Notes: generated by a model from the sequence alone, not told the origin. Positions 11,231 through 18,230 are shown, counted from the stretch's first letter. The stretch: 54,189 nt of DNA from Escherichia coli (GCF_003334335.1 NZ_QOWQ01000032.1), one strand, 5' to 3'. A program made the numbers and translations.

Positions 11231-12655
11231 TTAATGTTTAACCATGACGTGGCGGACGACGGTGTAATCCTCCAGCCCATAAAGTGACATATCCTTGCCG
11301 TAACCAGAAAGTTTCTGCCCACCGTGCGGCATTTCACTTACCAGCATGAAATGGGTATTGACCCAGGTACAACCATATTGCAGCCGTGCGCTGACGCGAT
11401 GCGCCCTGCCCACATCTTTCGTCCATACCGAAGATGCAAGTCCGTACTGGCTGTCATTCGCCCAGTTCACCACCTGTTCTTCGTTGTCGAAGGGCGTAAC
11501 ACTCACTACTGGACCAAATACCTCTTTTTGCACGATGGCATCGTCCTGTAATGCGCCAGCCAGCAGCGTCGGCGCATAGTAATAGCCATTACCCTTGCGC
11601 TTTTCACCGCCAGTGATCACTTTGATGTGCCCTGTCGCTTTCGCCTCTTCTACTGCCTTGCTGACGCGTTCGAGATGCGCCAGCGAGCTTAAAGGTCCAA
11701 GCTCCGTAGACTCGTCATCTGGCGCACCAGATTTTAACGTTGCCACCGCAGCACCCAGTTTTTCCACCAGCGTATCGTAAATGCCTTTTTGCGCGTAGAT
11801 CCGACAAGCCGCAGTACAATCCTGTCCAGCATTGTAATAGCCAAATGTACGTACACCTTCGACCACTGCTTCAATATCCGCATCATCAAAAACAATCACT
11901 GGCGCTTTGCCACCAAGTTCCATATGAGTACGCTTAATGGACGACGCGGTATGGCTGATGATGTGCTCGCCGGTGGCGATAGAGCCCGTCAGCGACACCA
12001 TCCGCACTTTGGGATGACCGGTCAGCGGATCACCCACCGTTTTGCCTCTGCCAAACAGTATGTTAATCACGCCTGCCGGGAAGATATCTTTCGCCAGCTC
12101 TGCCAACTTCAACGCGGTCAGCGGGGTAATTTCTGATGGTTTAAGCACTACGCAGTTCCCTGCCGCCAGCGCCGGAGCAAGTTTCCACGCGGCCATCATC
12201 AGCGGATAATTCCACGGTGCGATAGAAGCCACGACCCCCAACGGATCGCGACGGATCATCGAAGTATGACCTTCAAGATATTCACCTGCCGCCAGACCAT
12301 TCAGACAGCGCGCCGCACCCGCGAAAAAGCGAAAAACATCGACAATCGCCGGGATTTCATCATTGAACGCACTATGCAGCGGTTTGCCACAATTACGGGA
12401 CTCCAGTTCGGCAAAAACCTGACCATTTTCTTCGATAACATCAGCCAGTTTCAGCAGACATTCCGCACGCACTTTCGGCGTGGTTTGCCCCCATTCGGCA
12501 AATGCTGCATCTGCCGCGCGCACAGCAGCATCGACCTGCTCTGCGGATGCCTCGGCAATTTCCAGTAAAACGTCCCCCGTTGCCGGATTATAGACAGGCT
12601 GTTTTTCCCCTTCGCCGCTAACCAGTTCTCCGTTAATCAGTAACTTATGTTGCAT
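11231..12655 (-). CDS. patD: gamma-aminobutyraldehyde dehydrogenase (aldehyde dehydrogenase family)
   Basis: 474-aa ORF with ALDH catalytic region (MELGGKAP ... QDCTAACR). Matches PatD (YdcW/Prr). Confidence 0.9.
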
Positions 12656-12676
12656 AGCATATTCCTGTATCAGTGG

Positions 12677-13471
12677 TTATTGACCATTGTCGCCTTCGCG
12701 GGTTAGCCACCAGGCCCCCAGGATCGGCAAGGTTGTTACCAACATAACCAGCAGTGCCACCACGTTAGTTACCGGTACATCACGCGGTCGCCCAAGCTGA
12801 TTGAGCAACCACAACGGTAACGTTCGTTCATGACCTGCCGTAAAGGTCGTAACGATGATTTCATCGAACGACAAGGCAAACGCCAGCATTCCTCCTGCCA
12901 GTAACGCCGAACTGAGATTCGGCAACACTACGTAGCGGAAGGTTTGCCAGCCATTGGCCCCAAGATCCATTGACGCCTCAACCAGACTCCAGGAGGTGCG
13001 GCGAAAACGGGCGATGACATTGTTAAACACCACAACTACACAAAAAGTCGCATGACCGACCACGATGGTGAAAAATCCCGGCTCCAGATTGATGGTTTTA
13101 AAGGCGGTTAATAACGCCAGACCAGTGACAATGCCCGGCAGCGCAATGGGCAGCAGCAGTAACAGCGAAATGGCGTTTTTGCCGAAAAAGTCTCGTCGCC
13201 ACAGCGCGGCAGCTGCCAGCGTCCCTAACACCAGCGCAATTAATGTCGCCAGCGCCGCCACTTTAAGTGACAGTGTCACGGCATCAAGAATATCACTACG
13301 CTGTGCTGCCACGCTAAACCAGCGCAGCGTCAGGCCCTGCGGTGGAAAACTAAACGCCGCATCTTCAGTGTTAAACGCATAGGCGGCGATTATCAGGATG
13401 GGAAAATGTAGGAAAACAACGCCGCCCCAGGCCGCCAGTTTGAGGAAAAACGGTGCGCGTTCAGAGTGCAT
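12677..13471 (-). CDS. ydcV: ABC transporter permease (polyamine-type)
   Basis: 264-aa ORF, multi-TM, with the permease EAA-like loop region. Last gene of the ydcSTUV cluster. Confidence 0.9.
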
Positions 13472-16579: not shown

Positions 16580-16823
16580 AAGGTCTTACTCCTGTCGTAA
16601 TTAATTGTTCAGCCGCCGTGCCGTAAAAATATCTCCTTGTTTAACCATAGACGGCGGCTTGCAGGCACACCTTCGCCCCTGAGAAAATTTATTCAGGTTG
16701 TGAGCTACCGCGCATTATGCCGTCTGTAAGGTTATCTTCTGGAGTATAGTCAAGGAGTTAGGAAATATGACTGCTATTCGAAATTCATATTACCCAATCT
16801 AAGAGGAATTAAATTAAACGCTA

Positions 16824-18230
16824 TTACAGCCGTTCTTGAGTAAGTTTGCCTAATTGTTTTACCGCCTGTTCTTCACGCTCTCCCCACTGCCACGCGGTAT
16901 TAAAACGGAAAAAACGTGACCAGTTTTCACCGGTAGAAAACATTTTACCCGGCGCAATACTGATATGATGCGTCAGTGCCGCCAGGCTTAATTCGCCGGC
17001 ATCTAACGGCTCGGGGAGCTCCAACCAGAGAAAGTAACCACTGTCATTATGATGAATTTTCACTTCCGCAGGCAGATAACGCAGCAGTGCCTGCCAGGCA
17101 CGTTGTTTACGTTCCGCAAGCTGGCGACGCAGGCGACGAAGATGGGCGTCGTATCGGCGCGTGGAAAGGTAATCCACCAGCGCAAGTTGCATCGGTGAGC
17201 TGGTGGAAAGCGTACTCATCAACTGCAAGCGTTGAATTTTACGTGCATGTTTTCCGGCGGCGACCCAACCAATACGAAAACCAGGCACCAGACATTTCGA
17301 AAACGAAGAGCAATGCAAAACGCCATCGTGGCGATCCCACGCTTTCGCAGGCAGCGGTTTTTCCCGTCCAAAATAAAGTTCGCTGTAAACGTCATCTTCA
17401 ATCAGCGTTACGTTGTACTGATTGAGCAACGCCACCAGTTGTGCTTTTTTTTGCGGCGTTAAGGTAAATCCGAGTGGATTCTGGCTATTAGTCATCAGCC
17501 AGCACGCTTTCACCGGATACTCCTGCAACGCCAGTTCCAGCGCCTGAAGATCTATCCCTTCTTTAACATCCGTCGCCACCGATAACGCCTTCAGCCGTAG
17601 CCGCTCCAGCGCCTGCAACGCACCGTAGAAACAAGGATTCTCTACTATCACCCAATCGCCCGGTTCAGTTACCGCTTGCAAACTGAGGTTTAATGCCTCT
17701 AACGCCCCGGCAGTAATGACAATTTCATCAGGAGAAATGGTGATGCCCTGTAAGGCATAGCGACGAGCAATAGCCTGACGCAGTTCTGCGTTTCCTGGCG
17801 GTAAGTTTTCAATCACGCTCATCGCTGTGGCGGTTTTGCTTACCTGCGCCAGCGAGCGGTTTAGTTGTTGGAGGGGGAAAAGTCGCGGGTCGGGAAAGGC
17901 CGAGGCAAACGGAACGACCGACGGATCGCGACTGGCCTGCAACATATCAAAAATATAAGTGTTGATATCGACTGCTTCATCTCGAGTGACTGGAATGACT
18001 GGCGCTTTCGGCATTTTTATTGCCTGTGGCGCAACGTAATAACCCGACTGCGGTCGTGCGATAATATATCCCTGACTTTCGAGCAACTGATAGGCATGGC
18101 TGACAGTCATAAAGCTCATGCCTGAAAGCGCCACCTGGTCACGCAACGAAGGCAAACGATCGCCGGGTTGCCAGATACCCGACGCAATCTGCTCGCGTAA
18201 TTGTTCTGCAAGCTGCTGGTATTTTTTCAT
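16824..18230 (-). CDS. ydcR: MocR-family regulator (GntR HTH fused to PLP aminotransferase-like domain)
   Basis: 468-aa ORF with N-terminal HTH (LPSLRDQVALSGMSFMTVSHAYQLLE) and C-terminal aminotransferase class I fold. Confidence 0.9.
   Translation of the reverse strand: MKKYQQLAEQLREQIASGIWQPGDRLPSLRDQVALSGMSFMTVSHAYQLLESQGYIIARPQSGYYVAPQAIKMPKAPVIPVTRDEAVDINTYIFDMLQASRDPSVVPFASAFPDPRLFPLQQLNRSLAQVSKTATAMSVIENLPPGNAELRQAIARRYALQGITISPDEIVITAGALEALNLSLQAVTEPGDWVIVENPCFYGALQALERLRLKALSVATDVKEGIDLQALELALQEYPVKACWLMTNSQNPLGFTLTPQKKAQLVALLNQYNVTLIEDDVYSELYFGREKPLPAKAWDRHDGVLHCSSFSKCLVPGFRIGWVAAGKHARKIQRLQLMSTLSTSSPMQLALVDYLSTRRYDAHLRRLRRQLAERKQRAWQALLRYLPAEVKIHHNDSGYFLWLELPEPLDAGELSLAALTHHISIAPGKMFSTGENWSRFFRFNTAWQWGEREEQAVKQLGKLTQERL

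Follow-up and report, generated by a model that had tools for sequence, protein, structure and literature searches.

The ydcR-ydcSTUV-patD locus of Escherichia coli: a probable importer-dehydrogenase module for amines and a neighbouring MocR-type regulator that probably controls itself

Several described systems can be compared with the ydcR-ydcSTUV-patD cluster of Escherichia coli. GabR, which is found with gabTD in Bacillus subtilis and senses gamma-aminobutyric acid (GABA), is the paradigm of the MocR regulators. The polyamine importers PotFGHI and PotABCD of E. coli, and with them SpuD/SpuE of Pseudomonas aeruginosa, are the nearest named relatives of the importer. The regulator itself has been placed in a "YdcR" orthologous group of 65 regulators that includes PA4132 and b1439 (Suvorova & Rodionov 2016, PMC5320631); PA4132 is MpaR of Pseudomonas aeruginosa, through which cyanide-dependent ccoN4 expression is brought about at an ATCTGAT motif. 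Here, we analysed a stretch of 54,189 nucleotides of E. coli DNA (GCF_003334335.1, NZ_QOWQ01000032.1; hereafter "the window"), in which the cluster occupies positions 11231-18230. An initial annotation had described it as an amine uptake and catabolism module under the control of the MocR-type regulator YdcR. We find that the locus is best described as two adjacent, separately controlled units, namely a ydcSTUV-patD amine module and an autoregulated ydcR, and we give this reading a probability of roughly 0.65. The adjacency of ydcR and ydcS is then best explained as synteny and not as a regulon.

The central evidence comes from the binding sites of the regulator. An alignment of the 160 nt upstream of ydcR from 79 species yielded the operator ATAACAGTT-N25-CTGATATA, an inverted repeat which is present with at most four mismatches in 78 of them, without any mismatch in 52, and with a spacer of 25 nt in 74. 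In the window, the operator is located on the minus strand at 18268-18309 and consists of aTTACAGTT (18301-18309), a 25-nt spacer and CTGATATA (18268-18275). It overlaps the promoter-like hexamers of the predicted ydcR promoter, and the final base of the hicB stop codon doubles as the first base of the operator. A position weight matrix (PWM) built from 35 unique sites gives this operator a score of 27.5, higher than anywhere else in the 54 kb; shuffling the window 20 times gave maxima between 8.7 and 19.4. The best score in the ydcR-ydcS spacer of the window is -3.5. For 75 species we compared both regions, allowing any half-site spacing of 15-35 nt, and found a median best score of 33.0 upstream of ydcR; the spacer leading up to ydcS or patD gave a median of 2.6 and never exceeded 13.4. 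We were not able to find an operator upstream of ydcS in any species scored. Two other candidate sites were discarded. The sequence TTACAG-N27-CTGAATA in the ydcS leader scores -3.5 as a second YdcR site and its left half is lost in other Escherichia; the second-best match of the window, at 31094-31137 inside opgD (TATAACAGT-N-CTGGCATA), scores 16.2, which is within the range of the shuffled maxima and can be ascribed to chance.

These results can be set beside published binding data. Chromatin immunoprecipitation with exonuclease treatment (ChIP-exo) of YdcR-8myc gave 19 sites, ydcR and ylaC among them (Gao et al. 2021, PMC8464067, Dataset S4). One of the two strongest, at 1509941-1509970 of MG1655 and with a signal/noise of 12.3 (PMC8464067), corresponds to positions 18263-18292 of the window, that is, inside the operator and in the 78-bp gap between hicB and ydcR. 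No YdcR site at ydcS or patD is listed in that data set, which was obtained in glucose M9 (PMC8464067). In electrophoretic mobility shift assays (EMSA), a 189-bp fragment with the ydcR promoter was shifted by YdcR from 50 nM, and a 244-bp ydcR-ydcS fragment served as the negative control (PMC9321722). We therefore read ydcR as autoregulated, with the operator in front of ydcR itself, as the best interpretation. Control of ydcSTUV-patD by YdcR, as the initial annotation had proposed, is not supported, given that the operator is found at ydcR only, that ChIP-exo lacks a ydcS site and that the spacer was the EMSA negative control. At ylaC, the upstream region in MG1655 (about 5323-5356 of the segment 474000-484000) carries direct half-sites CTGTTAT and CTGTTAC, 24 nt from start to start and approximately 70-105 nt before the start of the gene. 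The ChIP-exo peak (479257-479280) is found just before the start codon; within it, GGAAAGTTGCAGAT is similar to GAAAAGTTGTCAT, a sequence of the ydcR operator spacer.

The alignments furthermore indicate that ydcS has a conserved promoter and leader of its own, with a predicted -10 element of the sigma-S type. The ydcR-ydcS spacer (16580-16823, minus strand, 244 nt) holds this promoter and a leader of about 160 nt, and an alignment of 39 Enterobacteriaceae leaders contains 55 invariant columns. The -10 element CTATACT (16743-16749, minus strand) lies within CTAACTCCTTGaCTATACTCCAG and fits the sigma-S consensus. Conserved blocks of the same strand are located at approximately 16773-16792, 16683-16719 and 16612-16658, and the Shine-Dalgarno sequence ACAGGAG is found at 16589-16595 (minus strand). 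In E. coli O157, ydcS and ydcT have been reported among the most RpoS-dependent genes (125-fold and 22-fold, respectively), and the ydcSTUV-patD operon has been cited as controlled by Nac.

Two of the blocks deserve a description of their own. The block at 16773-16792, some 25-45 nt upstream of the ydcS -10, reads TCATAGGAAATnTGCATA in most genera and ATATGAATTTCGAATA in E. coli. It resembles an ATA-N9-TAT site of the Nac/LysR type and, judging from its sequence, could be where the reported control by Nac takes place. Some 35 nt ahead of the ydcS start (window 16612-16626), most genera have an invariant CGGCAC-GGCTG-CCGC with the GG-N10-GC spacing of sigma-54 promoters; Escherichia has CGGCACGGCGGCTGA there and has lost the GC at -12. 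Other enterobacteria may thus carry a second, nitrogen-regulated ydcS promoter. Two other explanations of the leader were rejected. RNAalifold on the 39 leaders gave 12 pairs with 0 compensatory changes, and an Rfam search of the leader returned no match at E up to 5, which argues against a structured RNA or riboswitch and for conservation of the primary sequence. A leader peptide in the invariant GGAGATATTTTTACGGCACGG block was rejected as well, as there is no usable start codon and the reading frames vary between genera.

If YdcR does not act on ydcS, its genomic neighbourhood on the other side may offer a different target. Our comparative set comprised one YdcR-encoding locus from each of 80 Enterobacteriaceae species, with the neighbours scored by tblastn. 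A cytochrome-bd-like operon of the CioAB type (subunits I and II and a DUF2474 protein, far below the CydA/AppC cut-offs) is divergent from ydcR in 70 of the 80 species, so that the YdcR operator sits in a control region shared with the oxidase. In all four Escherichia loci and in the window this operon is missing, and hicAB is found in its place. This is best read as a loss, in Escherichia, of a cioAB-like operon ancestral to the ydcR neighbourhood. The toxin-antitoxin pair (hicB, 18309-18725; hicA, 18771-18947) abuts the YdcR operator; several Citrobacter have hicAB inserted between cioA and ydcR, and hicAB may be an insertion associated with the loss of the oxidase genes. The regulon predicted for the YdcR group includes ylaC in E. 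coli and Salmonella and cydAB-like genes, ccoN or napH elsewhere; ydcS is not part of it (PMC5320631). As regards membership of this YdcR/MpaR group, the window has an operator scoring 27.5 and lacks the oxidase genes, and the divergent oxidase operon is present in most relatives (70/80). YdcR would thus be an autoregulated, pyridoxal phosphate (PLP)-binding MocR regulator of the YdcR/MpaR orthologous group which, because Escherichia lost the oxidase operon, is left in E. coli with itself and distant targets such as ylaC.

The other unit, the importer together with PatD, is widely kept. Among the 80 species, ydcSTUV followed by patD is found in 65 and patD alone after ydcR in 12; one species has neither ydcSTUV nor patD, and in two the contigs are too short to tell. 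Since remnants of the ydcS leader precede patD in the 12 patD-only species, the importer genes were deleted there from an ancestral ydcSTUV-patD unit. For example, leader blocks are left before patD in loci of the Enterobacter cloacae complex and in Salmonella diarizonae. In the E. cloacae complex, a second deletion extends from the stop codon of ydcR over the terminator and the promoter of ydcS. The ydcR reading frame consequently ends inside the leader remnant, and patD is probably on the ydcR transcript.

Outside the Enterobacteriaceae, the order YdcS-T-U-V-PatD also occurs in Pseudomonas parafulva, Serratia marcescens and Rahnella, with YdcS 77-85% and PatD 71-78% identical to the E. coli proteins. 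The full order in these clusters is LysR, a second PatD paralogue, YdcSTUV and PatD; the paralogue is 60-62% identical to PatD and passes the aminobutyraldehyde dehydrogenase subfamily model. In Brenneria, a LysR gene is divergent to ydcSTUV, and in none of Pseudomonas, Serratia, Rahnella and Brenneria did we find a MocR gene within 8-9 kb of the importer module. In Serratia marcescens, patD is followed by the gene of a 636-residue flavoprotein that JGI, UniRef and some NCBI records name spermidine dehydrogenase. It starts with MGITRRDFLNG, which holds the twin-arginine (Tat) export motif TRRDFL, and beyond it lies the gene of a c-type cytochrome that carries a Sec signal peptide and has CTACH as its haem site. 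The Serratia/Pseudomonas spermidine dehydrogenase converts spermidine to 1,3-diaminopropane and 1-pyrroline, which is 4-aminobutanal in cyclic form, and cytochrome c can serve as its electron acceptor (PMC12564564). The idea that this enzyme is a general neighbour of ydcS, on the other hand, had to be rejected: it is directly adjacent only in Serratia, one Cronobacter strain has a homologue roughly 4 kb downstream from patD, and there is none within 10 kb in the 80 ydcR loci. The pairing of a Tat-exported flavoprotein resembling spermidine dehydrogenase with a c-type cytochrome is conserved as a unit of two genes in Serratia, Mixta, Aeromonas and Yokenella; in Yokenella, the pair is preceded by an aldehyde dehydrogenase 46% identical to PatD. 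The contigs of more distant YdcS relatives (35-60% identity) were short or uninformative with respect to gene context. In summary, the view that the importer and PatD are a conserved functional unit tied to polyamine or amine catabolism is supported, because the linkage is kept widely and spermidine dehydrogenase adjoins the module in Serratia.

The stretch 11231-18230 is core E. coli DNA. Several complete chromosomes of the species match it with 100% identity, and of 5426 complete E. coli genomes, 5399 contain 80% or more of its length. The cluster is a known, already annotated locus. Six open reading frames occupy the minus strand throughout, from the patD stop codon at one end to the ydcR start codon at the other. 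The first gene of the operon, ydcS (15434-16579), encodes a periplasmic substrate-binding protein of 381 residues with a signal peptide at about residues 1-22. It is followed by the ABC (ATP-binding cassette) ATPase ydcT (14403-15416, PotA-like; its orthologues carry Pfam ABC_tran and a C-terminal TOBE_2), by the permease ydcU (13461-14402, PotB-like), which begins right after the ydcT stop codon, and by the permease ydcV (12677-13471, PotC-like), which overlaps ydcU by 11 nt. The last gene is patD (also ydcW or prr; 11231-12655), whose product of 474 residues is an NAD-dependent gamma-aminobutyraldehyde dehydrogenase. The gaps from ydcS to patD of 17, 0, -11 and 21 nt are typical of an operon. 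Past the patD stop codon by 41 nt, between the convergent patD and yncL, there is a perfect 12-bp hairpin (11158-11190, minus strand; RNA fold -30.2 kcal/mol, z = -2.7), which is the probable end of the patD transcript; as it has no U-run, it is not a canonical intrinsic terminator.

The protein models allow a more detailed assignment. PatD scores 1034.7 bits on TIGR03374 (ABALDH; cut-off 909.3) and matches the solved YdcW structure (PDB 1WNB/1WND) over its full length with 1070 bits. The contiguous genes ydcS to ydcV encode a periplasmic binding protein, an ATPase and a pair of BPD_transp_1 permeases, which makes YdcSTUV a type-I ABC importer of the polyamine/opine/phosphonate (POPT) branch. 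The best NCBIfam matches of its components are PotA for YdcT (359 bits, cut-off 482), PotB for YdcU (119.8 bits) and PotC for YdcV (146 bits), the latter two also below their cut-offs. YdcS passes its own equivalog NF041888, which is named "putative" (814 bits, cut-off 725), and stays far below PotF (62.1 bits versus 636) and PotD (46.2 bits versus 582). YdcR (16824-18230, minus strand, 468 residues) consists of a GntR winged helix and an aminotransferase-like PLP domain. It aligns over its full length to the PdxR, YczR, EhuR, MocR, PtsJ and GabR models. Its bit scores are below every named cut-off (PdxR 269/320, GabR 124/600, EhuR 186/480, PtsJ 125/573), so that it is none of the named MocR types. 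It matches the GabR structures with E = 7.5e-23, and PF00392 and PF00155 are found in YdcR homologues. YdcR is thus a GntR regulator of the MocR subfamily, in which a winged helix is fused to a fold-type-I aminotransferase-like domain. PLP binding, seen by intact-protein mass spectrometry, and DNA binding of YdcR have been published (Pfanzelt et al. 2022, PMC9321722). The six co-oriented genes proposed by the initial annotation were confirmed in their positions, as was the PLP-binding MocR-family regulator. The proposed polyamine or amine module gains support from the linkage in 65 of the 80 species, from Serratia, Rahnella and Pseudomonas, and from the adjacent spermidine dehydrogenase of Serratia. 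Its description of the importer as "PotFGHI-like" holds at the level of the superfamily only, since all components are far below the Pot equivalog cut-offs.

What YdcS may bind can be approached from its fold. The structure PDB 6NLP, deposited as "extracellular solute-binding family protein", is YdcS (residues 23-381), and YdcS matches the profiles of SpuE, PotD and PotF at E-values of 1e-25 to 1e-29. With 366 representative clusters at E up to 1e-30, the subfamily of YdcS-like proteins is a small one, and it has invariant cysteines of its own. We mapped the binding pocket with single-sequence and profile alignments to PotF, SpuE and PotD, which agreed with each other at identities of about 20-25%. 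According to these alignments, the PotF residues W37, Y40, S85, W244, F276 and D278 are retained or conservatively replaced in YdcS (W41, Y44, S94, W257, W283 and D285), and three acidic positions are lost: D39 is replaced by G43, E185 by Y190 (relatives have Ser or Ala), and D247 falls in a loop that YdcS lacks. Since the aromatic box and one Asp are kept and the other acidic residues are lost, we would expect, with low confidence, that the ligand is held firmly by one amino group and does not sit in the pocket as a classical diamine would. Of the importers, only PuuP is reported to be needed for growth of E. coli on putrescine (Kurihara 2009), which would fit this expectation.

Taken together, the following picture seems most plausible to us. 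The genes ydcSTUV-patD would form one operon with its own sigma-S-type promoter and a long leader. YdcSTUV would most likely scavenge a polyamine-family amine in stationary phase or under nitrogen limitation, and the carbon skeleton would pass via 4-aminobutanal or a close homologue, which cytoplasmic PatD would oxidise to GABA. The oxidation of 4-aminobutanal to GABA by PatD has been shown in the literature; GabT and GabD would presumably finish the pathway.

Several observations weigh against this picture. The assignment of the ydcS -10 to sigma-S is putative and made by consensus alone, the pocket of YdcS was mapped with alignments of low identity, and spermidine dehydrogenase directly adjoins the module in a single genus. 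A literature search found YdcSTUV called a putrescine importer only via databases or as "putative", and no transport or binding assay for it. The separation of the two units is challenged by the alternative that YdcR responds to an amine or a PLP adduct, much as GabR does to GABA, by activating or repressing the neighbouring ydcSTUV-patD. MocR regulators usually control their neighbours and YdcR does bind PLP. The co-oriented adjacency is conserved, with patD staying beside ydcR in 77 of the 80 species. In K-12-like strains the TTACAG-N27-CTGAATA sequence of the ydcS leader has the spacing of the true operator. A crude scan found a terminator-like hairpin between ydcR and ydcS in 28 of 61 non-Escherichia loci carrying ydcS and none between ydcR and the ydcS promoter in Escherichia, so that read-through from the ydcR promoter is possible there. 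Salmonella and the E. cloacae complex also lack the promoter block of ydcS; there, patD abuts ydcR and may be co-transcribed with it. Moreover, ChIP-exo covered a single condition (glucose M9) and the EMSA was done only with PLP and putrescine; an effector absent from both could unmask binding at ydcS. We nevertheless consider control of ydcS by YdcR quite unlikely. The look-alike site scores -3.5 and its left half is not conserved even within Escherichia, the spacer scores remain at a median of 2.6 against 33.0 upstream of ydcR, ChIP-exo and EMSA do not point to ydcS, and ydcS is outside the published regulon reconstruction. In Pseudomonas, Serratia, Rahnella and Brenneria, furthermore, the module is accompanied by LysR and not by a MocR gene.

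The function of the importer may be questioned as well. YdcS has been reported as a periplasmic synthase of short-chain poly-3-hydroxybutyrate (cPHB), its K-12 RefSeq product name includes "polyhydroxybutyrate synthase", and a ydcS deletion has a central or global flux phenotype on glucose. YdcS and YdcV have also been described as required in natural transformation by double-stranded DNA; according to a summary of Sun 2016 in PMC6135910, transformation is 6.7- and 9.5-fold lower in ydcS and ydcV mutants. YdcS could therefore be mainly a cPHB synthase, or a receptor for the uptake of double-stranded DNA with YdcV as the channel, and its link to patD could be incidental. The ydcT ATPase mutant, as summarised in the same place, has only a minor transformation defect. 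By sequence and structure (6NLP), however, YdcS is a class-II periplasmic binding protein and not an alpha/beta hydrolase, a complete ABC importer is encoded alongside, and the link to PatD-family dehydrogenases is tight and wide. The reported phenotypes are modest and could be indirect, and we give a mainly non-transport role little credence. A variation closer to our own picture is that YdcSTUV imports an extracytoplasmic product, either 4-aminobutanal/1-pyrroline or 1,3-diaminopropane, made by a spermidine dehydrogenase of the periplasm or by amine oxidases of the host or of bacteria, and that PatD oxidises the aldehyde on entry. The conserved partner of the importer is indeed an aminoaldehyde dehydrogenase (two of them in Serratia, Rahnella and Pseudomonas), and the core module encodes no enzyme that forms an aldehyde. 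In Serratia, the spermidine dehydrogenase with its Tat signal would produce 1-pyrroline in the periplasm, and PatD has no signal peptide. Of the three acidic residues with which PotF holds a diamine, two are missing from YdcS according to the alignment. This pocket argument is alignment-based, however; a molecule as small as 1-pyrroline may need no transporter to cross membranes, E. coli has no spermidine dehydrogenase, and the 80 Enterobacteriaceae loci have none within 10 kb. To our knowledge, no ABC importer for aminoaldehydes has been described. We regard this variation as unlikely. If true, it would establish a new substrate class of ABC importers with PatD as the obligatory receiving enzyme, and it would account for a genetic link of the importer with aldehyde dehydrogenases and not with an aminotransferase.

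In our preferred reading, with an amine module and an autoregulated ydcR side by side, some current labels would have to be reconsidered. The description "putrescine transporter under YdcR" has been copied between databases without experiment. Candidate ligands of YdcSTUV should include polyamine cleavage products as well as putrescine. The targets of YdcR to examine would be ydcR, ylaC and, in other enterobacteria, the cioAB-like oxidase, rather than ydcS. E. coli and Salmonella would keep YdcR as an "orphan" regulator whose ancestral cytochrome-bd-type oxidase neighbour is lost, and this view bears on the reported role of YdcR in Salmonella virulence and on cyanide sensing by MpaR.

A few further features of the window are recorded here. 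At the 3' end of patD there are two very small genes (10671-11134), ortT, an orphan toxin of 57 residues, and yncL with 31 residues; the latter, a stress membrane protein convergent with patD, has the 12-bp hairpin (11158-11190) in common with it. Among annotated strains, the best match, NZ_CP025842.1, is colinear with the window from approximately base 60 to 40160; from there onward it carries an IS600 insertion beside aldA that is missing from the window. Following the annotation of this colinear strain, positions 23368-25009 hold insQ, an RNA-guided endonuclease of the TnpB family, beside an IS200/IS605 tnpA pseudogene. Rfam matches at the gathering level are found at 36016-36167 (109.7 bits; the antisense RNA sok, from the hokB/sokB locus) and 36727-36790 (92.5 bits; the small RNA RydC).

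Compared with the described systems, the locus shows a mixture of shared and divergent traits. The clusters of Serratia, Rahnella and Pseudomonas have the orthologous importer and PatD in the same order as E. coli; unlike E. coli, they carry a LysR regulator and a second aminoaldehyde dehydrogenase and no MocR gene, and Serratia adds the periplasmic spermidine dehydrogenase (SpdH) and a cytochrome c. Like PotFGHI and PotABCD (and SpuD/SpuE), YdcSTUV combines a pair of permeases and a single ATPase with one class-II binding protein of the periplasm. The best matches of YdcT, YdcU and YdcV are PotA, PotB and PotC, and by alignment YdcS keeps the aromatic box and the Asp equivalent to D278 of PotF and D257 of PotD. 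On the other hand, all Ydc components are far under the Pot equivalog cut-offs, YdcS, as aligned, has Gly, Tyr and a deletion in place of D39, E185 and D247 of PotF, and it differs from the Pot binding proteins by two family-conserved Cys pairs and a C-terminal extension. While YdcSTUV is genetically tied to an aldehyde dehydrogenase, the Pot operons are not.

YdcR, in turn, shares with GabR of the gabTD system the two-domain build, PLP binding and a two-box operator that overlaps its own promoter, by which autoregulation is implied. It is unlike GabR in that the adjacent catabolic operon does not appear to be its target, that its operator is an inverted repeat with a 25-nt spacer, and that it reaches 124 bits where the GabR cut-off is 600. 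With the MpaR/YdcR group, whose predicted targets are terminal-oxidase genes, YdcR is linked through the orthology of YdcR and MpaR as placed in PMC5320631. The MpaR motif ATCTGAT and the enterobacterial YdcR operator have the core CTGAT in common; unlike the ccoN4 cluster of MpaR, the window has no oxidase operon, and hicAB stands in its place.

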